DNA from: a virus
DNA: 64,000 bases
Strand: one strand, 5' to 3'
IMG/VR virus record: IMGVR_UViG_3300010222_000002
Coordinates: 1 to 64,000 of that record
In this document: positions 1,183 to 42,400 of the stretch, one piece after another
Layout of the letters: every line of letters begins with the position of its first letter
How positions within the stretch are numbered: the stretch's first letter is position 1
Program-made: the position numbers and the translations under genes
Notes under the pieces: generated by a model
Databases searched by the model: none
Seen by the model: the letters and a program-made list of their open reading frames with translations, nothing else
What the model was told of the DNA's origin: nothing

Positions 1183-4100
1183 TTACATGAAGGCAGACAG
1201 GCCGCTTTGACTCTGGCACTGTCCACGAAGCGCGGCCTCAGTCTCGACCCCGAAGGCGTCCAGAATATCTTCCATCGGATTCTTGAGACACTTTCGTTGC
1301 ATCTCACTGGCGTCTATCTTCAGGTCCACATCGATAAGGTCGCGGTGGGAGTCAAAGGCTATCACATCGACCTGCTCACCGTTGACCGTCTGACGAGGCT
1401 TGACCTTTGCTCTCTTTGGCTTGTCCCCCTTCTCGAATTTCACATCGAGAAGGTGGTTGGCAAACCACGCCGCCCGAGGCGCTTCACCCCGTGGGTGGTC
1501 GCCGGTCGAGGACCATGAGTAATAGTCATCTTGGTCTGATTTATCGGGATCTATCTTTTGCCCGAGGCCCTGCGGAATACCGAGGTAATCCCAGTCCGGG
1601 TCGGCGGGGTCGATTGACGACGATGCTTCGTAGACTGTCTCGACCACTGCGCCCTTATCGGCTCCACGGACTATCTGTTCGAGAACTTCTTCCTGAACCT
1701 CCTTCGTCATTAAGGAGAAGTTCGATTTCACGCACTGGAAGCCGGTCACGTCGAACTTACCCTCACCGCCGTTCACTGTTTCACTGAACTCATCGCCCTC
1801 GTCCCACATTTTGAGGTAGGCATAGTTCTTTTTCTTGTCTTCGCACATGAAGAAACGTTCAGCCCGCATCTCAACTTCAATCTCCCACCGATTGTCCTCA
1901 CGGGGGATGTGGAACTCGTCGCAGAGTTCGGGATAGACCTGACGTTCCAGCTCTTCGCACAGTTTCTCGGCATAGGCCAGCGTGTACTGCTGGTCCCAAT
2001 TGCCCGGAAACTCTACATAATTGCTGTCGGTGTCGCCGTAGACCACCTCTACGCCGTCAACAGCGTTCTCTGAGATGTACCCGGCGGTCCCTTTGATGAC
2101 TCGCTGGCCGGTAAGGGTGACAGCCGCCGCGTCGTGTGGGTTGTAGAGCGGCGAACGTGCCCACCCCGAATAACCGTAAAATGATTGACCTGTCCACGAC
2201 ATGATACCATCACGGCCACACAGCATCGTGTGGTTGTCCTCCACCGTGATGCAATACACTCCTTCGTTGGACCCGGATTCGCGGCGCTCCGACGAGCGGT
2301 TCATGCGGAAGTGGTTGTTTGCTTCGTTCCAACGTACTCGGTAGCCATTCCATGATTCTTCCTCGTGGTAGCGGACGTTCTGCCCGAACTCTACGGCGAG
2401 CCGCATGAAGTCGTCTCGTAGGTCCTCAGACTTCGTAGTGTAACGGTCCTGTCCTTCGGCTCCGTCTCCAGCGATAAGCGTGTTGAACAGGAGCCGCTTC
2501 TGCTCGGGACTGAGGCTCCACACGAACTCTGGAAGGCGCTTGTTCTCGGAGCCGGACCCGCACAGGTCTTCGAGCAGGTCGCCAAGGATGCGGCTGGTGA
2601 ACGACAACTGCATCTGGTCTTCATTGTAGTCCAACCCACACCGTTCGAGAACATCACGCACTGCTGGCCTGTCACCGGCTTCCCGTTGAGCTATTTGGAC
2701 TATCACACTGTATTCTTGCCGACCAACGCAACCTTCCGTAGCGTACCACGCCAGCAGTTCCACGAAGGCGTCACCGTCGTAGAACGTGGGGACGAACTTC
2801 CGGTTGCGAGCCGAGTGGACCTCCGTCGTTCGGTCTTCGCACATCTTCTCGATGACGTGTTGAGCATCGAGGTAGTCATCAGCGGAGATGAAGTACCCAC
2901 CTGTGTTGTCGTCGTACTCAGCCTCTACGTGGTCGGGAATGTTAGACTGGAACGTACGTCCGTGAACCTCTGGATAGACTCGAACTTCACCACCGCCAAT
3001 AATTTCTTCTTCAGCAATGCTGAACCAGTCCATTCCCGTCCCGTGGATGTCCGGGTTAGACCCGACAGCGGTGGGCATCTCATAGCCAGCCGACTTCGTA
3101 AGTTCTCCTGCCTCTACGAACTGGTATTTTTCTTCCTTGACATACCCATCGCGCTGTCTGACGACAGTTCGGTGATTCGGGGTAAGCGTCTGGCTGATGT
3201 TCGTAGTGTCTATCTCGATAAGGTCGCCGTCGTACTCCGGGTAGGAGAACGTTTCAGTCACTTCCTTGAGTTCTACTCGTCCGGTATCAGGGTCCAGCGA
3301 ATAGACTTTATCACCAACCTCCACGTCCTTGATGTTGACTACCCCATCGGCGGTCATCACTTCATGGTCGCCAGTAACACAGTTATATATTGTTTTTGTG
3401 ACATTATACGCCTCGGCGTACTCTTCCCACAGATCAGTGCCGTACTCGGCGGAGTTCCGTTGTTGCTTGAACTCGCGCTTGACTTCGTGGTACTCGTCAA
3501 CAAGCTCGCGGATGATGCCGTCCTTATCGGTACGGAACCGCTGACCGTTCTCGGCTTCTACGTAGTCGAACTTACCGTCGCCGCCGTCACGACGACCAAT
3601 TTCGTCTATCATCGCGTGCCACTCGGTCGTCCCCTGCTCGGCCTCTATCCGGGTGTCAGGCGAGGCGTTGAGCATCCACTGCGTCATTGGGTAGAGGCTG
3701 GCGAGGTCCACGCCGCAGACGTTTTCTTTGACCCCGGAGAACGATGGGAAGACGTATGCTCCTTCGTAGTTCACGCCGTCATCAGCGTTCGCCACGTAGG
3801 GATTATCGTAGGCCGTTATCATGGCGAGATCGTGTTCGTGGCACTTCCGGCGAACAGACATTTCGATGAACTCGTTGTTCTCGTGCGTCCGTCGCCAGTC
3901 CACGCCCACCATGTCCTTCAGCCGCTTCTTGAAGCCGAGGACGTTCTCTTTCTCGTTTATCTCGACGGTAAGCCGAGTGTCTTTGACGTTGTAGTTGATG
4001 AACTTCACCGGGTCCTGATCGTACATCTCAAAGTAGCCCATCTCCTGATGCTCGATTTTCGTGTCATCGAGTACGTCAGCGGCTACGTCGTCCAGCTTGA

Positions 4101-5124
4101 ACGACCGGGGTTGCGTAAACTTGGTGTCGCCCCAGCCGTCCATCAGGTCGTAGAGCGCCCGGCCAGTAATCTCGGGAATAAAGTCGTCGCCGTAGCCGTC
4201 TACTTCGACTTCTCCTTCTCGGGACAGTCGGGCAGGGGAAGCACCCACTGACTTCATCCGCTCGATGATGTGTGGCAGGTCGAAGCCGTCCGTACTGCTG
4301 TCACCCGAGTTCCAGCCAGCGATCAGGTCCGGGTTCTTGCCCTGTACCCACGACCCGAAGGCCACGAGCATCCGGCGCTCGTTGGGTTCGAACTTCAGAG
4401 CATCCGGTTCATGGAGGCCGAGGTCATCCAGCCCGAAGTCTTCATCTTCGTTTGCCATCTTCGCCCGCTGGACCGGCGAGAGGTCGAAGAACGACTCCAT
4501 GCTCTCGCCGTCGAGGTCGAGGAAGGCGGTGTACTCGTCATCGTAGGAATCGTGAACAACGATGCTCAGAATCCGGGCCTCACCGGGATCGGGGAAGCCA
4601 GCGCCCCGGTCGTCAGTCTCTATGTCCAGCGTGAGAACACGGGGGTCCACATCGGTCATCTCGACCGGCTCAAGTTCATCGCGGTCAGCGATGATGTGAT
4701 CGTCGCGGCGAGTTTCCGTTGGAACACGAACGCCGGTTCTGATTTTTTCGTCAACCCGGAACCGTTCGGTGAAGATGGTGTCAGCGCCCCACGTCTTGTC
4801 GAAGTATTTCCGAAGGACGGGAACGGAGTGGGGATACTCCGTGACGACCTTCACGAGGTCGGTGGGATTATCATCGAACCGCTCCGACAGCGGGTCTTCA
4901 TCTACCTCTTCGTACTCGATAAGGTCTTCGTGGTCCGACGGCTGGACGGTATCCCCTTCTTCTGCTCGGGTGAGGAAGTAGGGACTGAAACCAGTGACCG
5001 TAACCGTCCGAGCTTCGTGGTCCCGATTCCTGCCGTACAACCGAACGACAACGGAACTGAAATCGGTGTCTCCGGGGTACATCGTCTCGGTCGTGGTGAT
5101 GTAGAGTTCTTCTGTTTCTGTCAT
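1183..5124 (-). CDS. polB: family B DNA polymerase, interrupted by an intein
   Basis: Exo I LTLDIETDD, NYNVKDT, motif A DLASLYP, motif B KTIYN / SFYGY split by the intein, motif C VYGDTDS. The start is set at ATG 5122-5124 (MTETEELY..., ATGA overlap with the upstream ORF). The basic 29-aa extension to 5211 is not used. Confidence 0.93.
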   Translation of the reverse strand: MTETEELYITTTETMYPGDTDFSSVVVRLYGRNRDHEARTVTVTGFSPYFLTRAEEGDTVQPSDHEDLIEYEEVDEDPLSERFDDNPTDLVKVVTEYPHSVPVLRKYFDKTWGADTIFTERFRVDEKIRTGVRVPTETRRDDHIIADRDELEPVEMTDVDPRVLTLDIETDDRGAGFPDPGEARILSIVVHDSYDDEYTAFLDLDGESMESFFDLSPVQRAKMANEDEDFGLDDLGLHEPDALKFEPNERRMLVAFGSWVQGKNPDLIAGWNSGDSSTDGFDLPHIIERMKSVGASPARLSREGEVEVDGYGDDFIPEITGRALYDLMDGWGDTKFTQPRSFKLDDVAADVLDDTKIEHQEMGYFEMYDQDPVKFINYNVKDTRLTVEINEKENVLGFKKRLKDMVGVDWRRTHENNEFIEMSVRRKCHEHDLAMITAYDNPYVANADDGVNYEGAYVFPSFSGVKENVCGVDLASLYPMTQWMLNASPDTRIEAEQGTTEWHAMIDEIGRRDGGDGKFDYVEAENGQRFRTDKDGIIRELVDEYHEVKREFKQQRNSAEYGTDLWEEYAEAYNVTKTIYNCVTGDHEVMTADGVVNIKDVEVGDKVYSLDPDTGRVELKEVTETFSYPEYDGDLIEIDTTNISQTLTPNHRTVVRQRDGYVKEEKYQFVEAGELTKSAGYEMPTAVGSNPDIHGTGMDWFSIAEEEIIGGGEVRVYPEVHGRTFQSNIPDHVEAEYDDNTGGYFISADDYLDAQHVIEKMCEDRTTEVHSARNRKFVPTFYDGDAFVELLAWYATEGCVGRQEYSVIVQIAQREAGDRPAVRDVLERCGLDYNEDQMQLSFTSRILGDLLEDLCGSGSENKRLPEFVWSLSPEQKRLLFNTLIAGDGAEGQDRYTTKSEDLRDDFMRLAVEFGQNVRYHEEESWNGYRVRWNEANNHFRMNRSSERRESGSNEGVYCITVEDNHTMLCGRDGIMSWTGQSFYGYSGWARSPLYNPHDAAAVTLTGQRVIKGTAGYISENAVDGVEVVYGDTDSNYVEFPGNWDQQYTLAYAEKLCEELERQVYPELCDEFHIPREDNRWEIEVEMRAERFFMCEDKKKNYAYLKMWDEGDEFSETVNGGEGKFDVTGFQCVKSNFSLMTKEVQEEVLEQIVRGADKGAVVETVYEASSSIDPADPDWDYLGIPQGLGQKIDPDKSDQDDYYSWSSTGDHPRGEAPRAAWFANHLLDVKFEKGDKPKRAKVKPRQTVNGEQVDVIAFDSHRDLIDVDLKIDASEMQRKCLKNPMEDILDAFGVETEAALRGQCQSQSGLSAFM
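2185..3381 (-). mobile_element. intein (399 aa) with LAGLIDADG endonuclease domain, inserted in polB motif B
   Basis: It starts with Cys (CVTGDHEVMT). Block B is TLTPNHR. LAGLIDADG motifs are LLAWYATEGC and LIAGDGAEG. Block F is VYCITVEDNHTMLC. It ends ...SWTGQ, followed by Ser+1. Removing it restores K-T-I-Y-N-S-F-Y-G. Confidence 0.85.
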
Positions 5125-5288
5125 TGATGGATTAACTTTGATGATTGCTCCACTTCTTCCGGAGACTTGCTCAGTTCTTTTTCGACGTAGAACTCTGCAA
5201 GGCAGTCCCAATCGCAGAAAATCCCACCGCCGTAAGTGACGTAGGTGCCACGTTCAGCGGTGTCAGATTCACAGTAGACGCAGGTCAT
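5121..5288 (-). CDS. small zinc-finger protein (55 aa, CxxC...FCxxxC)
   Basis: Hand-translated ORF not in the track: MTCVYCESDTAERGTYVTYGGGIFCDWDCLAEFYVEKELSKSPEEVEQSSKLIHQ. Its TGA overlaps the polB ATG (ATGA). Confidence 0.5.
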   Translation of the reverse strand: MTCVYCESDTAERGTYVTYGGGIFCDWDCLAEFYVEKELSKSPEEVEQSSKLIHQ

Positions 5289-13870: not shown

Positions 13871-15288
13871 TATTCGAGAGTCCCCTGTTGGAACACGGTT
13901 TCTTCCTTCTCTTCCTGTTCCTCGACTTTCTCTTCCAACTCGTTCGCCTCTTCTTCGGTGAGGTTCACGGTGTGGCCCTCGAACGGATGGGTCACGAGCA
14001 AGCCCTCGCCTTCGAGGAACTGCTGTTCGTAATCCATCGCAACCGGCTTCGGATAGTGTTCGTGAACCAACTCTCGCGTGTCTTCGATGATCGTGGGCCA
14101 GTCGAGGTTTACTTCTCGGCTGACCTGATTAGCAAATTCCGAAGCCGCCCACTCGTGGGGGGTCACGGTCTTGTCGGGTCGGACGTACCCCTTCGTCTTC
14201 ATGCTCTTTAGCGCCGACCGAACGTCACTGTTGGTGATGTTCCAGCCTTGGCCGCGCATCTTGGACTGGAGCGTTCCAACGTCGTACTGCTTCCCGAAGT
14301 TGGTCCGAAGAACCTCCAGTAGCTCGAAGTCCTTATCCTGAAGGTTCAGCGCCGACAGGACCATCTTCTCACCGAAGACACGCATCCCAAGCCACGCATC
14401 TGCTGGTGTAACCAGTAGCGTCACGTCGTTGGTAATGCGATTATTACCGTTCCAGAGTTTTTGTGGAACCTCGATCCGGTCGTCGTAGTGGAAGAGCGTG
14501 ACACTCTTCATAAAGTCCGAAAGCCTCGGGAAGTCGCGCCGGGCTTCGGTAAAGTGCTGAGGGAGCGGGTTCTGGTCATCCAGTGCAGGCATCACCGGAT
14601 TAAGGAAACCGCCGGGAGAGTCGTCACCGTAAGCGTGCATCGGGATCGTTGAGACGTACTCCCGAATTTCTTGGGTCCGTTCCTCGTCTATGTTGTACTC
14701 GATAATTCCGGCTTCCTGCTTTGCCTGCCGGGTGTTGACCCGCTCGGTCAATCCGGCGGAGTCATCAATCCCAAGAACGAGCGCCCGGTTTCGGACTTCG
14801 GCGTAGTCATTGATGTCCACCTGCTCATTGTCCGAAGCGAGGAACAGGATCAGACAGTTCGGTGGCATCAACGTTTGTGTCACTGTTTGTCGCTCGCCGC
14901 CGGTCACGTCGTTGTAGGAGTGGCTGATGGGATTGCCGTCGCCGTGACGCTTCCAGATGTCTTCGAGCCAGTCCTTCCCGGCGATGTTGCTGATGTCTTT
15001 GTGCCGGTGGACCGGACAAGAGTTGATCTGATCGGCTTCTTCGTACAGCACGGTTTCGCTCATCGACGTGGGAATCTGGTAGACCCAGTTATCGGGAACG
15101 CAATACTCAGCGGCGTTCACAACTGCGTCTTTTCCGCCGGACGAGAGGCCCGTCATCACGACGAAGCCACCGCCCATAAAGGAGAGAAAGACCACGAGGT
15201 GTGTGTCTCCTTCCCCAGCGAGGCCAAAGTCTTCTCGTAGTTGACTTACTTCATACAGCGTCGGACTCTCGTAGTCGTTAATGGTCAT
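13870..15288 (-). CDS. P-loop NTPase (putative replication ATPase/helicase-like)
   Basis: Walker A-like MTGLSSGGKDAV and Walker B-like CLILFLASDNE. It lies between the primase and a homing endonuclease. Its specific role was not established. Confidence 0.55.
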   Translation of the reverse strand: MTINDYESPTLYEVSQLREDFGLAGEGDTHLVVFLSFMGGGFVVMTGLSSGGKDAVVNAAEYCVPDNWVYQIPTSMSETVLYEEADQINSCPVHRHKDISNIAGKDWLEDIWKRHGDGNPISHSYNDVTGGERQTVTQTLMPPNCLILFLASDNEQVDINDYAEVRNRALVLGIDDSAGLTERVNTRQAKQEAGIIEYNIDEERTQEIREYVSTIPMHAYGDDSPGGFLNPVMPALDDQNPLPQHFTEARRDFPRLSDFMKSVTLFHYDDRIEVPQKLWNGNNRITNDVTLLVTPADAWLGMRVFGEKMVLSALNLQDKDFELLEVLRTNFGKQYDVGTLQSKMRGQGWNITNSDVRSALKSMKTKGYVRPDKTVTPHEWAASEFANQVSREVNLDWPTIIEDTRELVHEHYPKPVAMDYEQQFLEGEGLLVTHPFEGHTVNLTEEEANELEEKVEEQEEKEETVFQQGTLE

Positions 15289-16096
15289 TGTAGGTTGTGT
15301 CGGTTGGGATTTTTCGTTCTAATGCCGGTTCGGTGTCTGGCCCATCGGGGTAGAGCCAACTCCATAGCTTTTCGACTCCATGCTTCTGTCGGACGTAGAT
15401 ATACTGTTTTTCGTCTGTTTCAGTAACGTAACCGCCCGAGGGGAGCCACGAAAGTACCTTCTCAAACCGCTCTTTGTTTACACCTGTAATTTGGAAGGTA
15501 TCATAAGAAGCAAGATGACCGTCTCCGTCATACAGACCACGAACGAACGCGGCCCGAAGTCTGTCTGATTCTAACTCAGGAAGGGCGGGGGAGAACGTCT
15601 TGTCTCTGTCACAACCACAGTCCCGAAGGTCGTCAGCCATCTTTTCGCTGGTAATTGTAATGTCATGCGTGCCGTCTTTCTGCTCCTTAACTCCGTATTC
15701 CGCATCGACTGCTTTCTTGAACGCAACGACGTGTTCCCGGTCAATCAGACAGAGTGATACTATGTGAGAGTTAGAATTTCCACGGACGTAGACTGCCCCA
15801 TCAGCGTACAGCATACCGAGCCAGTACGCTTTTTCGGTATTGTCTATCTCGGAGAAGTAGGACTCATTGACAGGCAACTTTCCGTTTTTCCGTTTGTCAT
15901 CTACCCCCGCAAGCCGCTTTGCTCGCGTCCACGTTCCGAAGTGGTTTTCGAGCGTACTGGTAGAGGGGCCGTCCATCTCACCAAATTCGTCATAAGTTGG
16001 CGGTCTTCCAAGCTTTTCGGTTGCGTTACGAATTGACTGAAGTCTTTCTTCGTCATCATATCCGTAACAGTAGTCTGTTTTTCTTTCGTATGCCAT
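15278..16096 (-). CDS. free-standing LAGLIDADG homing endonuclease (two motifs) with N-terminal helical repeat
   Basis: AYWLGMLYADGAV and FVRGLYDGDGHL. The N-terminal GRPPTYDEF...STLENHFGTWTRAKRLAG repeat also occurs on the HNH protein. The start is set at ATG 16094-16096; the track's GTG start is part of the GTGACACAACC box. Confidence 0.8.
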   Translation of the reverse strand: MAYERKTDYCYGYDDEERLQSIRNATEKLGRPPTYDEFGEMDGPSTSTLENHFGTWTRAKRLAGVDDKRKNGKLPVNESYFSEIDNTEKAYWLGMLYADGAVYVRGNSNSHIVSLCLIDREHVVAFKKAVDAEYGVKEQKDGTHDITITSEKMADDLRDCGCDRDKTFSPALPELESDRLRAAFVRGLYDGDGHLASYDTFQITGVNKERFEKVLSWLPSGGYVTETDEKQYIYVRQKHGVEKLWSWLYPDGPDTEPALERKIPTDTTYNDH

Positions 16097-16216
16097 TGGT
16101 TGTGTCACGCCACTTCACGGGCTGACGCCGGGTCCGTTCCGGGGAGGGAACAGACCCAAAGGCGGCCCGCGAAGCGGAAGAAGGTAGTTAGTTTCCGCGC
16201 TGTTCAGCCTACTACG

Positions 16217-18715: not shown

Positions 18716-18787
18716 CGGTAGGTTATGTCTCCGCCGTGGCGTCATTGGGGTGAGAAACCAGCCCGCAACGCCAGCTTGGACTGCCCA

Positions 18788-18860
18788 TAGTCCCGACGAG
18801 ATTCGAACTCGCGTCAGAAGGTTCAAAGCCTCCTATGATTGTCCACTACACTACGGGACT
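18788..18860 (-). tRNA. tRNA-Gln (anticodon UUG)
   Basis: Minus strand AGTCCCG-TA-GTGTAGTGGACAATCAT-A-GGAGG-CTTTGAA-CCTTC-TGAC-GCGAG-TTCGAAT-CTCGT-CGGGACT-A. The cloverleaf was drawn by hand. CCA is not encoded. Confidence 0.85.
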
Positions 18861-19134
18861 ACAGCAAGCCGTGGGTGCCGCTAACCTTCTGGTGGCCTAC
18901 CTCGTTCGCCCGAGGTCCACACTTCAACGGAACAGGCTTGAACTGTCTCGCTGTCGTGCATTACTCTCGTAGGGTTCGGACAAACGGTATTGTAGCGACC
19001 ACGCACCCAGTTCTATGATTTGTCATTCGGGTAATGGGGATTTTTACGTCTCTCGCTGGGCGTTGACCACACCTTCTTCTCAGTCGAGGACGAACGGGAA
19101 GTCCCGAGGGTTTCAGCCAGCGGGCCTTCTCGAA

Positions 19135-19210
19135 GGCCGGGAGCGGGACTTAGCACCCACGTCTCAGGCATCACAAGCCTGCAATCTTATCTATATTAGA
19201 CCATCCCGGA
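19135..19210 (-). tRNA. degenerate tRNA-like gene, His-like (GUG) anticodon loop; possibly a pseudo-tRNA
   Basis: Anticodon arm CAGGC-TTGTGAT-GCCTG and acceptor TCCGGGA/TCCCGGC. However, pair 1:72 is a mismatch, there is an extra nucleotide before the anticodon stem, and the T-loop is non-canonical and 8 nt long (GTGGG-TGCTAAGT-CCCGC). Confidence 0.35.
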
Positions 19211-19212
19211 AG

Positions 19213-19283
19213 TGAGAACGGGTGGATTTGAACCACCGTTCTGGCGTCCCAAACGCCAAATGATACCACTACACTACGTTCCC
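19213..19283 (-). tRNA. tRNA-Pro (anticodon UGG)
   Basis: GGGAACG...TGGCG-TTTGGGA-CGCCA...GGTGG-TTCAAAT-CCACC-CGTTCTC-A on the minus strand. Confidence 0.85.
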
Positions 19284-19501
19284 TCAAGTAATGTCTCCTT
19301 TTCTTTGATATGGGGTATCTCGGAGCAAGGCTCCCCTTCTCGATGGCTGATCCCCTTTATTCCCACACTGGGAGCGACCCAGTGCAGGGAAGGCCGTCAA
19401 GCGCGGCCTTTTCTAACAGCCCTCACTTTTCCTAAAACTGGCATCTCAGCCAGTTTGCCCCATTTCGTCAATGCGGTTGGCTGAATTTGGCTGTCAGTTG
19501 A

Positions 19502-19575
19502 AGCTGGAATCAGGACTCGAACCTGAGACTTCCATCTTACGAAGATGGGCCTCTGCCAAGCTGAGGTATTCCAGC
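19502..19575 (-). tRNA. tRNA-Thr (anticodon CGU)
   Basis: GCTGGAA-TA-CCTCAGCTTGGCAGAGG-C-CCATC-TTCGTAA-GATGG-AAGTC-TCAGG-TTCGAGT-CCTGA-TTCCAGC-T on the minus strand. Confidence 0.9.
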
Positions 19576-23901: not shown

Positions 23902-24042
23902 CCGAGGACGGTCCGGGCGTGCGGCGCTGCGCGCCGTTCCGGGCCTGCGACTCGTCTGCTCAAATCTCGGTGGCACGACATCCTCGCGCGAGAAGTGAGC
24001 GACACGCACAGCGGTCGCTCACGGAAATGCGCTCGGAAGAAG

Positions 24043-24067
24043 GTGCGCTGGCCGAGATTTGAACTCG
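24043..24067. repeat. 25-nt direct repeat, copy 2
   Basis: Identical to 23877-23901. Confidence 0.8.
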
Positions 24068-24089
24068 GGTTAGGACCGTGGCAGGGTCC
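24044..24089 (-). other. tRNA-Gly(GCC)-like 3-prime fragment (anticodon arm to acceptor end); candidate attP core
   Basis: The minus strand reads GGACC-CTGCCAC-GGTCC-TAAC-CCGAG-TTCAAAT-CTCGG-CCAGCGC-A. No matching 5-prime acceptor strand or D-arm lies upstream. It is about 280 nt from the integrase start. Confidence 0.5.
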
Positions 24090-24247
24090 TGTGATACCAC
24101 ACGCCGCTTCGCGGCGTTTTCCGGCAACACTTTCTGGTAAAGATCGTTTCTGACTTCGGTGTTTGGGTAATATTACACGAGTGTAATAAAACCCTCTGTT
24201 AGGTACCACGATGAGGCTGACAAGAGTCTGTGATAACCTTACATCCC

Positions 24248-37916: not shown

Positions 37917-39011
37917 TTAGCTCTGTACTGCTTCTACCGCCTCCTCCGGGGACTGGCCCTTCGACTCGACGCGGAACCGAACCGCATCAGCTTCCATACC
38001 CTCGAAGCCATAGGCTTCGATAACCTCCTCGACGTTTGGCTCTTCGTCGCCGTCGCCACCATCGTTCTGAAGAGCGTTCCGACGCTCTTTTAGTCGGGTC
38101 ATGGCACCCTTCCGGGTGTTTTCGGAGTCGCTTTCGACCCGAAGCATGGTCTGGATAGCTCGAAGGTTGGTGATGTTTGTCACCGAAAGCTCTTTGGGAC
38201 CCTGACCCCGAAGATCGCTCACGTTTACTTCGGTGACTCTCTCCGGGTTAGCGGCGAGGTTGAAAACCTCGTCGTCACCAGAGTCAGCTTCGCTGTCGTC
38301 CCCAGCGACCTCTTCGGGGTCCGTTCCGCCGTCATTCTCGAAGACTTCAGGGTGGCTCGAAGCCACCAGTCCGTCTTCTTCGGTCCAGTGCGACGGTTCG
38401 TCAGGGACCTGCTGGAGGATTTCGAGAGCTTCGAGGACTTCGTTGCCCTTTTCGACGGCGATGGGAAGTCGCTCGCCGTCAACCACCAGAAGCTTTGGTC
38501 CACCGTAGGTGGTGTCGAAGCCGACTTCCGAGGGGTCAATGCCCATCTCTTCGAGGCTTTCACGCTCTCCGCCGTCCAGACCTTCCCACTGCACCGAAGG
38601 GAGGTCGTTGAAGTAGAGAGCGTAACTGAAGTCCACTGAGTTGTGAAGGCCATCATCGTCGTGGCTCTCAGGAACCGTCCCATCGACCAGCCCGATGCTG
38701 TGGTCGGCGTCTCTTTGCATCTTCCCGGCGGTGGACTTTGCCAGCGAAGCCACCATTTGAAGCCTCTGCTGGGGATGAGCATCGCTGTACTCGCCGAGAA
38801 GCCTCGAAGCATCTTCGAGAGTGTCGTCGCTGTAAATCTTCAGCGGTTCGAGATCGAGAGCTTCCAGCATCTCGCCGAGAAGTGACTTCCAGTCTCCGAG
38901 GGAGAGGTAGATTTCAGGGACTTCACTTGAAGTGAACTCCGGCGTCTCTTCGGTGTCTTCGGTGGTCTGTTCCTCGTCGTCGGCTGTCTCGACTGCGAAA
39001 TCGAAACTCAT
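37917..39011 (-). CDS. hypothetical acidic protein (364 aa)
   Basis: Track ORF trimmed to ATG 39009-39011 (MSFDFAVETADDEEQ...); the track start is GTG. It shares a 32-nt exact repeat with 31135-32046. Confidence 0.6.
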   Translation of the reverse strand: MSFDFAVETADDEEQTTEDTEETPEFTSSEVPEIYLSLGDWKSLLGEMLEALDLEPLKIYSDDTLEDASRLLGEYSDAHPQQRLQMVASLAKSTAGKMQRDADHSIGLVDGTVPESHDDDGLHNSVDFSYALYFNDLPSVQWEGLDGGERESLEEMGIDPSEVGFDTTYGGPKLLVVDGERLPIAVEKGNEVLEALEILQQVPDEPSHWTEEDGLVASSHPEVFENDGGTDPEEVAGDDSEADSGDDEVFNLAANPERVTEVNVSDLRGQGPKELSVTNITNLRAIQTMLRVESDSENTRKGAMTRLKERRNALQNDGGDGDEEPNVEEVIEAYGFEGMEADAVRFRVESKGQSPEEAVEAVQS

Positions 39012-40145
39012 TGGTTCTAAATTGTCACCCACTTCGTAGAGTGACCTCACGTTCCTTGTTGTTTTCCGGAAGGAAAAGTCGGGGTCGGGGGCCGGAGGCT
39101 CTTATAAATTCCACCTTCGACCCTAACCGACTCAGCAATCTCTCGGCTTTGCCAGTTGCGTGACTTCATCGCCGTAAGGACTGTTCTTTTTCTCTTGAAG
39201 AACTCTCGCTCTCGCTTTGCTTCACAAGATTGAGTCTTCAGAAAGGTAATTCCTCCCTGAAGTGAGTCCCGTTGCGCCAGTTGTTTGAGGGTTCCACGTA
39301 ATTCGCTTCGCCCCGTCTCCAGTAACTCCACACTGAACCGGACACCGACCCCTCTCGGGACCTTTGTTCAGGCTTCAACGTCCTGTTTTCCGTGGCAGTC
39401 TTTGGCTCCGTCACGGTGTCATCGTGACCCTTCTGAGTCGTTCGGTCTTCGTGAGCTTTCAAGAGGTCGAAGGGTGTGAACCTCCTGAATCACTATTTCG
39501 GGTCCCCTTTCACTGCGAAAGGCTCCTACCGTCTCGCTTTTCGGTGGAAAAGAGACTGGCGGCACCCTGCCGTAGCCCAAGAATCTTAGCGTGAGCTTCG
39601 AGTCTTAGACCACGAAGGTCCGTAATGGGGCGTTCACTTCTGCCGAAGTGCAATCCCTCGATACCTCGACCCTGACATGGGTCTTCAATACTAACGTGAG
39701 TCTTCTGCCTTCGCCCCTTAGTCGCCAAAGGCTCACTTCTCTGCCCTTCTACCGTTCAGGGCGCAAAGTCACCGTCGGGTTTCCTCACGCGGCGTTTTCC
39801 GAAGACCGCGACATGAACTTACAAACACGAAGGGTTTCGGGACGAACTCGGCGAAGGGCATCGGGGTAATTCCCCGCTTCGCCTTTAGATATTCGGCGGC
39901 TCCTGACACGCCCTCGGTCATTCCGAAGTACACTGGAACCGTCCCGCTTGTTTCAAGCCCGGTCAAAGGCTACCATTTGCCCCCTTCGCCGGGGTAATGC
40001 CCCTTTGAAGGAGATTGCATCGTGCAAAGGCCCTGAAAGGCCCTTCGTCCCTCTTATTCTTATAAAAGAACAGGGGAGAACCCCCCGAGACACACCGACA
40101 CTGCCCCGCGTGTGTGCCCGGAGAGTTTCGCTTGCCTGCGAGACG
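39012..40145 (-). ncRNA. long ORF-free, hairpin-rich region; candidate long leader or ncRNA locus read on the minus strand
   Basis: There is no ATG ORF of 60 aa or more; the track ORFs here start at GTG/TTG and are basic. Three AAGACTC motifs in minus orientation lie at 39232, 39600 and 39698. A duplicated promoter module at 40145-40200 predicts a start near 40141-40147. Confidence 0.4.
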
Positions 40146-40469
40146 TGTATCTGACGAGAGCCGGGTAACATATATATCTGTCGATAATCCGCGAGAGGGA
40201 GATATTAGCAGTAGACTACCGTGAGACTGTCGAAATCGGCACTTGGTATATATCATCAACAATCGTGTAGGATTTGGGAAAGTCGGCACTATTTGCTGAT
40301 ACCACAAGCAAATCTGACCCTCATATCAGCATCGACGGCGGTAGCTCCTTAACGGCGGGATTTCGGCAGTATCGGGGTTTTCTCTTTATACCAGAGAAAC
40401 TAATATTACCGGATAATAAACCGACGAATATCCAGTCTGCACGCGCCCATTTTCTTTTCTGAAAACGAC

Positions 40470-40830
40470 CTTCTTTCGATCTTTGTTCCCTTCGTATTCC
40501 GTTTCGATACGGGCGAGGTTCGTTCCCTTACGTTGTTCCCGTTCGTTGTTCTAATACGCAGTTCCCTTTCGTAGTTCTATACATAGTTCTAACTTGTAGT
40601 TCTATATGTAGTTCTAATTCGTGGTTCTAACTACTCTTACTTACTCACCCCCTTCTCGAAGCTAAACAGTCTAATCTTAACAGTTAGTAAGAATAGTAGA
40701 ATTAGAACAGTAGAATTAGAATAGTAGAGTAGGATCGTAGGAGCCATTCACAGGCGAAGATCGCTATTCGGGGATGCGGTATCTCTTAGATTGTATTCTA
40801 ACGAACGGAATTGGGGTTAGAATCGGTTTT
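40470..40830. repeat. iteron-like array with inverted arms; candidate replication origin or operator cluster
   Basis: The left arm has GTTCCC x5, then GTTCTA at 40548, 40574, 40586, 40599, 40611 and 40624 (12-13 bp period). The centre is CCCTTCTCGAAGCTAAACAGTCTAATCTTAACAGTTAG. The right arm has AGTAGAATTAGAA(C/T) x2 plus degenerate copies. GTTCTAATTC (40611-40620) is the inverted match of GAATTAGAAC (40699-40708). Confidence 0.55.
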
Positions 40831-40969
40831 TCTATGGTCGGCAGTGGTTGCCATCGTTTGAATGACTCAAAACGCGAGAGAAGCGTCTTAGCCGGTTTCG
40901 GGATATAGACGTAGTTATCACTAAATCGACATATTATACGCGAAAAAAAGACGGAACCGTGAAACGCCG

Positions 40970-41650
40970 TTACGCTTCGATAGCTTCTTTCACACTACCG
41001 TACAGACCTTTCTCGTAGTTCTCTTTCGCGGTCCGAGCGGTTTCGGCGTTAACCCCGAAAGCCTGCTGAATGTCGGCGACAGTCAGACTGTCGTCATCAC
41101 CGTTTGAAGTGGTTTGGTTGGTGTTTTCGCACTTTGCACACTTTGCCCCCTTCCCGGCGTATGCTATCTGACAGCCTTCACAGACTCCGTGTTTACCCTG
41201 CTTGTGCTGAAGTTTCACCACACCTATCTGAAGGTCTTTGAACCCTTTGTGGTTCCGAATTTTTTCTTCCGCCATGATCGCCTTGGGGTAATCGTAGAAG
41301 CCTTTCGGGTTGGGGTCGTCAAATGCGGGCTGATTCCACCCTTCGGACTCCGACGTTTCAGGCTGGCCTTCGTCGCCTTTTGAATGAACGTGGCAGTCTT
41401 CTATGTCTTCGCAGATGCCACATTTCTCACCGTTCGCTTTCAGGTGGCCTTCTTGAGTGTCTTCGCCGTCAGTCTCTTCTTCTTCCATCAAGTCCGAGAC
41501 TATCTCTTCCGGCGTTTCTTCTTTCTCCCCCTCTTCGACGTATTCGTTCATGAGGGCTTCGAGGTACGCCTCAGGTTCGACACCGAATTTCGCACTTAGT
41601 TTCTCGAACGTTTCAACCATTTTCTCTTCCGCTTCGGTCTTCTGCGACAT
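40970..41650 (-). CDS. hypothetical acidic Cys-containing protein (226 aa), probably leaderless
   Basis: Track ORF. TTTATATAA lies 25-33 nt upstream of the ATG on the coding strand. Confidence 0.6.
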   Translation of the reverse strand: MSQKTEAEEKMVETFEKLSAKFGVEPEAYLEALMNEYVEEGEKEETPEEIVSDLMEEEETDGEDTQEGHLKANGEKCGICEDIEDCHVHSKGDEGQPETSESEGWNQPAFDDPNPKGFYDYPKAIMAEEKIRNHKGFKDLQIGVVKLQHKQGKHGVCEGCQIAYAGKGAKCAKCENTNQTTSNGDDDSLTVADIQQAFGVNAETARTAKENYEKGLYGSVKEAIEA

Positions 41651-41674
41651 TGCGTATCTGAATTCGGACAGGTG

Positions 41675-41683
41675 TTATATAAA
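41675..41683 (-). promoter_or_regulatory. TATA-box-like element for the 40970-41650 gene
   Basis: ttatataaa lies 25-33 nt from ATG 41650, the spacing typical for leaderless haloarchaeal transcripts. It is part of a module duplicated at 40145-40200. Confidence 0.5.
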
Positions 41684-41779
41684 CCTGTCGATAGGGTTGC
41701 GCGGGAGAGACAACGCGCATTATGCGCTTGCTCTCCGTGACGCCCTATGAAGACCGGTTATCCATACGGGTTGTGGGGG

Positions 41780-42400
41780 AGGCATACCCGGTGATTCCGG
41801 TGTTAGGTGAGCCTGAAGTGCGAGTTCTGCCCGAGCAAACCCGCTGATACCGGTGATCTTGATTATATGTCGGGCGAGGTTTGAGACTGAAAACCGTGTA
41901 GAGAGTTACCTGAAGTCCCCGTTTTCAGACTTAAGGTAGACTGCCCACAACGGGGGTCATAAACTGAGAGTGAAAGGGGGGTGAAACCGGCCAAATGTGC
42001 CGCTTTCAGGGTGATATGAAGTGAATATGAAGTCTTGAACACCGGTGATGGGCCATTTCACCGGTAAAATCGCAAAAATCACAAATCTGATGTAAATGCT
42101 CCAGATATGAAGTCTGGTGAAGGACCCCGATCCGGCGTTTCAAAGGCTCTCGAAAGGCAGACAAAGGCAGAAGCGTATCTGTGGGTTGGGCGCGGTGACA
42201 TTCTACGAACGGTGTTGTGTCCGTTACGTAATGCAATGTGGGTGATATGGGCGAGTTGGGGCGTGAAGTCAGTGAAATCGGGGAGTTAATACACCAGTTT
42301 GGGTGTGCGAGAGCGAAATTGGTAACCCCACACGCACTGTAGGGTGTTCTGAGTCAGATTTCGGGGGTAGTGGTGAAGTCGGCGAAACGGGGTGTGGGGT
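41780..42400 (+). repeat. array of short same-strand repeats (TGAAGT(C) x7, ACCGGTGAT-like x4, ATATGAAGT x3)
   Basis: TGAAGT(C/G) at 41814, 41911, 42017, 42028, 42108, 42264 and 42374. CCGGTGAT-like at about 41788, 41849 and 42042, plus CCGGTAAA at 42061. No ORF is present. The array lies at the switch between the two gene modules. Confidence 0.6.

Follow-up and report, generated by a model that had tools for sequence, protein, structure and literature searches.

To our knowledge, very few structured RNAs reach a size of about 1 kb apart from rRNA and the self-splicing introns, and each such class has opened new biology, as with RNase P, the group II introns, OLE, GOLLD, ROOL and the HEARO/omega RNAs. 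GOLLD and ROOL are bacterial 'ornate' non-coding RNAs of unknown function that are often encoded by phages or prophages. OLE, from extremophilic Firmicutes, is a large conserved RNA whose gene lies immediately upstream of the gene for a dedicated partner, and it works as a ribonucleoprotein (RNP) with OapA, OapB and OapC. Here we describe an element that, like GOLLD and ROOL, is virus-encoded. It lies on the minus strand between positions 40148 and 39012 of a 64,000-nucleotide (nt) stretch of viral DNA (IMG/VR record IMGVR_UViG_3300010222_000002, positions 1 to 64,000; hereafter the window), which comes from a haloarchaeal tailed virus. We consider it probable that the element encodes one structured non-coding RNA of ~1.1 kb with several domains, belonging to a new family, and that this RNA acts as a folded scaffold or RNP.

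An earlier inspection of the letters alone (the sequence-only reading) had proposed that this region holds one or several minus-strand non-coding RNAs, or a very long leader. Our analysis agrees that the element specifies a structured, non-coding RNA of the minus strand, and finds one RNA in place of several.

Results

The stretch from 40148 to 39012 is non-coding

The sequence-only reading had seen no credible gene between 39012 and 40969, and this was borne out: the open reading frames (ORFs) there are short, overlap one another, start mostly at GTG or TTG and are rich in Arg and Lys. Inside the element, the longest ORF is at most 114 amino acids (aa), no ORF matches Pfam, and the predicted peptides are basic amid an acidic window proteome. 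Across 16 homologous sequences, each frame contains 8 to 26 stop codons, and no ORF ends at a stop that is common to more than 8 of the 16. The lengths of insertions and deletions are not multiples of three (856, 1803 and 1077 with remainders of 0, 1 and 2, respectively), and variability shows no 3-base periodicity. With stops in all frames, indels not in threes and no periodicity, the homologues do not reveal decayed coding sequence, the outcome that the sequence-only reading had named as fatal to its proposal. Thus, the window from 40148 to 39012 is non-coding.

Covariation reveals one large minus-strand fold

The sequence-only reading had called for a comparative check for covariation, and the alignments supplied it. 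With 10 sequences, RNAalifold gave 196 pairs, 108 of which had compensatory changes; with 16 sequences (alignment A4), the consensus comprised 249 pairs in 44 helices. In the larger set, 91.3% of the cells were paired, compared to 80.1% after shuffling and 40-50% when the partners were slid, and 132 pairs had changed on both sides, compared to 80 (shuffled) and 41-65 (slid). Not one of 500 shuffles reached any of the five structure measures. HSTV-2 and HRTV-11, which are 56% identical to the window and stood outside the derivation of the structure, served as an outgroup. They retain 73-78% of the pairs, compared to 35-41% for slid partners, with 26-27 pairs changed on both sides. The window sequence by itself folds with z = -3.4.

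The strand of the structure could be read from the same alignment. The alifold energy was -434.9 kcal/mol compared to -382.0 kcal/mol for the reverse complement, and the paired cells held 386 G:U compared to 98 A:C, with several G.U pairs invariant. Because of this excess of G:U and the invariant G.U pairs, structure at the level of DNA or of the plus strand is excluded, and the structure belongs to a minus-strand RNA.

Three long-range helices and a pseudoknot, PK1, which span ~600 nt, join the stretch into one fold, and the element is thus one large RNA, a single folding unit. PK1 was found by a search for non-nested covariation. Its 5' strand, UGUCA (39904..39908, within GUGUCA), pairs with its 3' strand, UGACA (39417..39421), such that 39908-39904 faces 39421-39417; 90.9% of its cells are paired, four of its five pairs are compensatory, and none of 500 shuffles reached its covariation score. 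Its counterparts are GUGGUA/UACCAC in HSTV-2, GUGCCA/UGGCAC in relative L198, GUGUUA/UAACAC in L191, and GGACUA/UAGU(GA)CC in L118 and L193. The local stems to which the sequence-only reading drew attention are also part of this fold; GGCCCTGAAAGGCCC (40026-40042) falls within covarying helices 4/5.

The RNA is conserved in three clades of haloarchaeal viruses

The window has a single copy of the element. Homologues were present in 16 distinct viral contigs, with an RNA identity to the window of 60-78%, and in all the element is known from ~20 haloarchaeal viruses, including the cultured HSTV-2, HRTV-7 and HCTV-6. Every homologue locus examined has a gene-free gap of 1.5-2.3 kb upstream of its homologue of the adjacent 364-aa protein, and the proximal 1.0-1.1 kb of these gaps aligns with window positions 40150-39012. 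Motif scans of IMG/VR added L003, L129, L130 and L198 to the relatives, and two such scans with 14-15-mers were overwhelmed by chance matches. Cellular or proviral copies were sought with a single motif scan of GTDB genomes and another of JGI metagenome contigs, both of which returned only chance matches, bacterial or unrelated.

Searches by blastn of the cultured phages, using either 38900-41000 or the consensus core, found no match. Only a profile hidden Markov model of alignment A4 bridged the distance to HSTV-2 (nhmmer, E 1.5e-51), where the match (NC_020159, 65144-66121, minus strand) lies directly upstream of gene 102 and over an annotated 47-aa 'gene 103'. HRTV-2, HRTV-7, HCTV-6, HCTV-15 and HRTV-11 carry the HSTV-2 type of element at 90-100% identity, and in this group the records show three or four small hypothetical proteins across its length. 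HSTV-2 gene 103 occupies 65488-65631 of NC_020159, and the corresponding genes of HRTV-11 are gp105-gp108 (MZ334518). Such annotated small 'hypothetical protein' genes inside the homologous RNA are probably spurious calls. The RNA is also found in L198, and the element is conserved in three clades of haloarchaeal tailed viruses. A covariance model, R1, of the block at 39320-39416 scored 95-144 bits on members from all three clades, compared to 14.5 bits for the best non-member.

The RNA is more strongly conserved than its protein neighbor. Identity to the window is 70% for the RNA of L191 and L192 and 36-37% for their adjacent protein; over all relatives, the protein ranges from 34 to 80%. In HSTV-2, where the RNA was found with the E value given above, the protein was missed by tblastn and was reached only by hhalign. 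That the RNA outlasts the neighboring protein in evolution argues for strong selection on the RNA itself.

The left end of HF2 (L195, NC_003345) was considered as a further homologue and rejected, since nhmmer and R1 were negative and its first protein is unrelated. In the immediate-early region of HF2, 1.66 kb free of ORFs (307-1969) separate the terminal repeat from the first gene, an arrangement comparable to that of the window.

The RNA belongs to no described family

A search of Rfam, also suggested by the sequence-only reading, was carried out with Rfam 15 (4,227 models), among which GOLLD, ROOL, OLE, HEARO and the group I/II introns are expected, as are archaeal RNase P, signal recognition particle RNA, the rRNAs and C/D small RNAs (sRNAs). 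At the gathering threshold, the whole window yielded three tRNAs only. A permissive scan of 38900-41100 gave Tombus_5 (18.4 bits compared to a gathering score of 43; E 1.3) and a miRNA (E 9.7), both at chance level, and the same permissive scan of seven relatives gave nothing on the element. Full-text literature searches and papers on these viruses gave us no account of a comparable large RNA from any archaeal virus. The element is thus a new RNA family, not described so far, and belongs to none of GOLLD, ROOL, OLE or put/nut.

Domains and motifs of the RNA

The whole structured RNA (39012..40148; all coordinates in this section are on the minus strand) measures ~1,137 nt, counted from its predicted start up to the last base ahead of the next ATG. 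Its 5' part (40043..40143) is less conserved: helices 2 and 3 are 81% and 73% paired, with 3 and 8 compensatory changes. This part contains a CACAC/GUGUG hairpin (40117-40090) and a C-rich/G-rich hairpin (40077-40043) whose conserved loop, UUUAUAAG/UUUAUUAA, is similar to a TATA box. Together with its T-rich tail, the latter hairpin scored as terminator-like.

Long-range helix 4 (40042-40036/39432-39426, feature 39426..40042) encloses the 5' and central domains; its 7 pairs, several of them conserved G.U, are 92% paired, and 2 are compensatory. The 5' domain (39825..40042, helices 5-15) is closed by 40025-40020/39830-39825 and has variable arms around a conserved core, GGGACGGUU...AGCCGCCGAAUAUCUAAAGGCG...AGUUCGUCCCGAAACCCUUCGUGUUUGU, whose motifs are common to HSTV-2 and HRTV-11. 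The central domain (39437..39812) is closed by helix 16, a 13-base-pair long-range helix (39812-39800/39451-39437) that is 100% paired in the 16 sequences with 5 compensatory pairs. Inside it, helices 17-27 are supported, a variable insertion occupies ~39790-39666, and covarying hairpins lie at 39659-39627, 39614-39571, 39562-39525, 39522-39506 and 39487-39460. An example of the covariation here is CACUUC-GGCA-GAAGUG / CAGGAC..GUCCUG / CAGCCC..GGGCUG.

The most conserved block (39320..39416, helices 28-33) consists of a hairpin (39416-39390), followed by GCCACGGAAAAC, and a long hairpin (39385-39320) with an invariant CCGAGAGG cap, a GAGA tetraloop at 39356-39353. Within the long hairpin is an internal loop (39327..39379) that fits the published consensus of a kink-turn (K-turn) at the level of sequence. 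It has a C-stem (39385-39380/39326-39320), a 3-nt bulge GUU (39379-39377), and GAA (39376-39374) opposite GGA (39329-39327). GAA and GGA are invariant or almost so, with the GA/AG positions conserved in nearly all 19 sequences, the bulge varies (GUU, GAA, GUA or GCU), and the C-stem covaries in L198. Both this loop and the GAGA tetraloop are conserved in all clades, and the loop is a predicted binding site for L7Ae.

The multi-branched 3' domain (39144..39279, helices 35-40) is closed by 39279-39276/39147-39144 and holds conserved AACUGGCG.AACGGG, GGCGAUGAAGUCACGCAAC and AAGCCGAGAGAUUGC, motifs common to the HSTV-2 clade. The 3'-terminal hairpins (39035..39131, namely 39131-39084, 39083-39065 and 39051-39035) comprise helices 41-44, which are 88-99% paired with compensatory changes.

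Two repeated motifs had been singled out from the sequence. The recurring CGGGGTAAT(T/G)CCCC blocks are indeed present (39862-39876 and ~39989) and are recurring hairpins with G-rich/C-rich stems and (A/C)(G/A)UU(C/A) loops, which occupy three to four fixed positions in the clade of the window and are absent from the HSTV-2 clade. AAGACTC does occur in three minus-oriented copies (39232, 39600 and 39698), of which the one at 39600 lies in a conserved helix. As a signal it was rejected, given 18 copies in the window compared to 14.2 expected and 18 of 100 shuffles that reach 18; it is not a meaningful motif. Antisense targets of the RNA were sought elsewhere in the window, with only chance-level matches of at most 15 nt.

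Predicted transcription of the element

Directly upstream of the element is an archaeal-type promoter sequence, TCGACAG plus ATATATAT (40164..40184, minus strand), with a TATA box at ~40170-40177; it is unique in the window. The module reads TCGACAGATATATATGTTACC from 40184 to 40164, and nearly all relatives, HSTV-2 and L198 among them, have the motif ATCG(A/C)CAG(A/G)T(A/T)TA(T/A)(A/G)T ahead of the element. As the sequence-only reading had noticed, the module has a twin (ATCGACAGGTTTATATAAC, ~41678-41696, minus strand) just upstream of a real gene, which starts with the ATG at 41650 and encodes 226 aa. After the twin promoter the leader would be only ~7 nt, compared to 1,137 nt before the next ATG in the case of the element. 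The predicted transcription start region, CAGAUACACG (40144..40153, minus strand), lies ~22-27 nt after the TATA box; CAGATAC stands at the same distance from the TATA box in both promoters, and an ATACAGG-like sequence is conserved in relatives. Both modules (41670-41698 and 40164-40184, minus strand) consist of ATCGACAG, a TATA box and a CAGATAC initiator, and a shorter copy, TTTCGACAGTCTCACGG, which is conserved in L001, is located at ~40210-40235. TCGACAG may be a factor-binding site common to early promoters.

A run of seven T (40943-40949) follows the upstream gene, and runs of 7 to 11 T are present there in most relatives. Within the element there is no run of five or more T, except for the 5'-leader loop in three sequences. 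Given the upstream run and the lack of a T5 run inside, the element is predicted to begin a separate transcription unit and is probably cotranscribed with the 364-aa gene by readthrough. Excision of the RNA by a 5'/3' processing stem, as in rRNA, was considered and rejected, as the duplex energies were no better than those of shuffles.

The neighboring protein

The constant downstream neighbor of the RNA is a gene for a 364-aa acidic orphan protein (37917..39011, minus strand), which is co-conserved with it. The protein has 33 metagenome homologues at 34-100% identity, and the RNA was upstream of the homologue in all such loci examined. A gene for a protein of ~360 aa follows the RNA in all loci of the three clades, and in 15 of the 16 loci the RNA stands immediately before the first ORF in the same orientation. 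In L118, two small acidic ORFs (88 and 109 aa; 3392-3990) lie between the RNA and the 364-aa homologue, and another hairpin takes the place of the last one of the RNA. By hhalign (99.1%, E 6e-19), HSTV-2 gp102 is remotely homologous to the 364-aa protein, and L198 has a 352-aa ORF in the same place after the RNA, known by position alone. The 364-aa protein has no Pfam or NCBIfam family, belongs to a PHROG of unknown function, and gave no match in a PDB sequence search; Foldseek comparison to PDB and BFVD revealed no function and no PDB fold.

The sequence directly before the start codon of the 364-aa gene (39012-39020) reads TTAGAACCA-ATG, and it is similar in L193, L118 and L122. TTAGAAC before this start has the same core as the iterons described below, which may be coincidence or a shared binding site.

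The surrounding genome

An HSP90-like protein of 946 aa encoded in the window is ~40% identical to its counterparts in HSTV-2, HRTV-7, HRTV-2, HRTV-11 and HCTV-6/-15. Further genes of the window specify an intein-containing family-B DNA polymerase, an integrase and a PD-(D/E)XK nuclease. Because the minus strand carries nearly all of the large ORFs between position 1 and ~41650, the element stands at the head of a leftward block of ~40 kb. The terminase and structural genes run rightward from 42910, and the small terminase gene is ~3 kb from the element. The window has five tRNA genes (Gln, His, Pro, Thr and Gly; 18787-19575 and 24042-24117, minus strand), three of them confirmed by Rfam.

The stretch 40185-40969 is distinct from the RNA and contains the shorter, partial copy of the promoter motif, an iteron array and the oligo-T terminator of the upstream gene. 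The array (40477-40731), located between the twin promoters, has direct and inverted repeats and could serve as a replication origin or bind a regulator. At least four direct repeats of 25-26 nt, each with two GTTC(C/T) cores, occupy 40529-40630, with weaker copies from 40477, and a second part (40690-40731) has three 14-nt repeats in inverted orientation around an AT-rich center. Relatives have other repeats (GAATTGGAATTGGCG) at this position. Upstream of the small terminase gene, a second ORF-poor stretch (41700-42390) divides the divergent leftward and rightward blocks. Its plus strand is rich in G, with (G/A)ATATGAAGTC motifs repeated at ~42014-42034 and ~42104-42116. The stretch is partly common to L003 only, which leaves too few homologues for analysis; it could be a pac site or another RNA.

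Elsewhere in the window, a Hint/intein domain interrupts the family-B DNA polymerase gene (1183-5211, minus strand), and the ORF at 15278-16108 (minus strand) has an HNH-associated repeat and a LAGLIDADG domain, and thus encodes a homing endonuclease. A sequence like a type II hammerhead ribozyme is present in the early gene block at 31027-31091 (minus strand) and in that of two related viruses (L125, 6485-6551; L117, 5973-6037), scoring 32.9-36.5 bits against an Rfam gathering score of 37. The HF2 RefSeq record likewise has a predicted type II hammerhead annotated in the early region.

Discussion

A proposed scaffold RNA made early in infection

We propose that the early promoter with which the leftward block begins would give rise to this RNA first. 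Since the RNA has no oligo-U signal, transcription would read through it into the downstream genes. The RNA could then act as a folded scaffold: its consensus K-turn would recruit the host K-turn protein L7Ae, and the linked ~360-aa protein is a candidate viral partner, much as OLE RNA works with a protein encoded next to it. The resulting particle might serve to take over host machinery, aid replication or packaging, or catalyze a reaction.

Several observations weigh against this proposal. Promoter function, the start site and the transcript itself are predictions from sequence, and the RNP is our best guess from synteny and from the match of the internal loop to the K-turn consensus. No terminator or recognizable processing site was found between the RNA and the downstream ORF, and the element may never be a free RNA. 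Neither an RNA-binding domain nor a known fold is recognizable in the 364-aa protein. Conservation is poor over the 5' 100 nt, whose conserved UUUAUUAA loop could be a second TATA box instead. Relatives of the HF1/HF2 type have no homologue detectable by nhmmer or model R1. Finally, because the 16-19 sequences are related viruses, the shuffle statistics overstate their independence, an overstatement that the slid controls and the outgroup test mitigate.

Alternative explanations

The main rival, which we regard as unlikely but serious, is a giant cis-acting 5' leader, in which the folded RNA stays on the early polycistronic mRNA. Such a leader might make RNA polymerase resistant to termination over the ~40-kb block, in the manner of put or nut, or might control the stability or translation of the first gene. 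The position of the element, directly after a promoter and, in all but one of the 16 loci, directly before a co-oriented first ORF, is that of a leader, as is the run of large downstream ORFs on the same strand to position 1. Neither an oligo-T run nor a 5'/3' processing stem separates the RNA from the ORF, and the last conserved hairpin stops 24 nt before the ATG. However, the element exceeds known cis-regulatory RNAs 10- to 20-fold in size. Most haloarchaeal mRNAs lack a leader, and the twin promoter of the same window would give the very short leader noted above. Furthermore, L118, with its two other genes after the RNA and its replaced last hairpin, shows that the RNA is not tied to a start codon. 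The RNA is also far better conserved than the gene it would control, and a globular multi-domain fold with a pseudoknot and a K-turn exceeds the needs of a switch.

It seems improbable to us that the RNA works without a dedicated protein as a large ribozyme or a self-assembling particle, either by catalysis or as a homo-oligomeric cage like those of GOLLD/ROOL. The size, the domains closed over long range, the pseudoknot and the unpaired blocks that do not vary, such as GCCACGGAAAAC.GGACG, AACUGGCG.AACGG and CCGAAUAUCUAAAGGCG, typify large ribozymes and ornate RNAs, and GOLLD and ROOL are also encoded by viruses. Yet the RNA is unlike the group I/II introns, RNase P, GOLLD, ROOL or any other Rfam model, it has no exon context and no evidence of cleavage sites, and a partner protein is indicated by its strict linkage to a single protein gene.

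That the locus is instead a row of independent small RNAs (sRNAs or guides like those of the C/D box class) is very unlikely. Many local hairpins, the promoter-like UUUAUUAA sequence inside the 5' part and a GAUGA...CUGA-like sequence would accord with this, but covarying helices join positions 190-610 nt apart (40042/39432, 40025/39830 and 39812/39451), PK1 pairs 39908 with 39417, and the element has neither internal oligo-T terminators nor an Rfam C/D-box match.

We give still less credence to an element that works as DNA, such as a replication origin, a packaging site or a protein-binding array built of inverted repeats. The adjoining iteron array and the small terminase gene would fit such a role. 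However, the pairing is strand-asymmetric (386 G:T compared to 98 A:C cells, with invariant G.U) where cruciforms would be symmetric, the reverse complement is 53 kcal/mol less stable when folded, duplex DNA has no use for long-range pairings or a pseudoknot, and relatives that conserve the element have wholly different iterons.

We assign next to no probability to decayed coding sequence or to a group of small ORFs that are translated: GenBank does list one to four small hypothetical proteins there (HSTV-2, HRTV-2, HCTV-6/-15 and HRTV-11), and the base composition is like that of the neighboring minus-strand genes, but the stops, indels and missing codon periodicity of every sequence, the lack of an ORF common to more than half of them, the basic peptides without a Pfam match, and a conservation that peaks exactly where base pairs covary all speak against it.

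Significance

A bolder possibility, which we put forward as rather doubtful, is that the element is the first giant 'ornate' RNA of the archaeal virosphere and is itself a machine, with or without L7Ae and the ~360-aa protein. If so, it could represent a novel large ribozyme or an RNA particle that assembles itself. Its synthesis would fall at the very onset of infection, and an entire lineage of haloarchaeal myoviruses (Mincapvirus together with two or more uncultured sister clades) would depend on it. Whichever role the RNA has, its presence in cultured virus-host pairs (HSTV-2 with Halorubrum sodomense, HRTV-2, HRTV-7, HRTV-11 and HCTV-6/-15) makes it directly testable and useful for asking how archaeal viruses take over their hosts. 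Since the host cytoplasm holds molar salt, it is also attractive for cryo-electron microscopy of RNA-only or RNP structures. The 'hypothetical protein' annotations over the element in the GenBank records of the cultured viruses need correction.

Comparison with known systems

Among virus-encoded structured RNAs, the phi29 pRNA works inside a protein machine, forming a ring on the portal. It is only 120-174 nt long and has no homology to our element, which is located in the early region and not at a genome end. The put sites of HK022 and nut/boxB of lambda share with the element a position directly after an early promoter and before a very long co-directional block. They act in cis, as folded nascent RNA, in antitermination, but are ~35-70 nt long compared to ~1,100 nt and have no sequence similarity to the element; we know of no such antitermination mechanism in archaea. 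As in 5' leaders generally, the element lies between a promoter (40184-40164) and an ORF (ATG at 39011), presumably on one transcript. It departs from them in its size (1,137 nt compared to less than 300 nt) and in the lack of a fixed relation to the start codon, as illustrated by the insertion and the altered last hairpin of L118.

Group II introns and other large ribozymes resemble the element in size, in long-range closing helices, in a GNRA tetraloop and in tertiary pairings between domains. However, the element has no domain V/VI and matches no Rfam intron or other such model, it lacks flanking exons and a reverse-transcriptase ORF, and it is intergenic, lying between a promoter and an ATG. 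With the K-turn RNPs of archaea (rRNA, C/D and H/ACA sRNAs, and RNase P RNA, which are bound by L7Ae) it shares a fitting loop in three clades, composed of a C-stem, a 3-nt bulge, tandem G.A/A.G and a third A.G, a match at the level of sequence; the remainder of the element resembles none of them.

GOLLD and ROOL come closer. They too are very large (0.6-0.8 kb compared to 1.1 kb here) and multi-domain, with pseudoknots and many covarying helices. The element differs in that it matches neither of their Rfam models, belongs to a virus of an archaeal host and is strictly linked to one protein gene. GOLLD and ROOL often adjoin tRNA genes, whereas the nearest tRNA genes here are at least 15 kb (~15-20 kb) away. 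Assembly into a homo-oligomeric cage is a trait of GOLLD and ROOL, and our element is known from its sequence alone. What they have in common is a large, multi-domain, covarying viral fold with pseudoknots, a likeness in kind and not one of homology.

OLE, finally, is likewise a large, well-conserved structured RNA from an extreme environment. It is cellular where the element is viral, and the two are not homologous, Rfam being negative. The OLE partner is a membrane protein, whereas the neighbor here is soluble and acidic and of unknown fold, a putative partner by virtue of synteny. It is this synteny with a specific protein gene, conserved in three clades, that the element shares with OLE.

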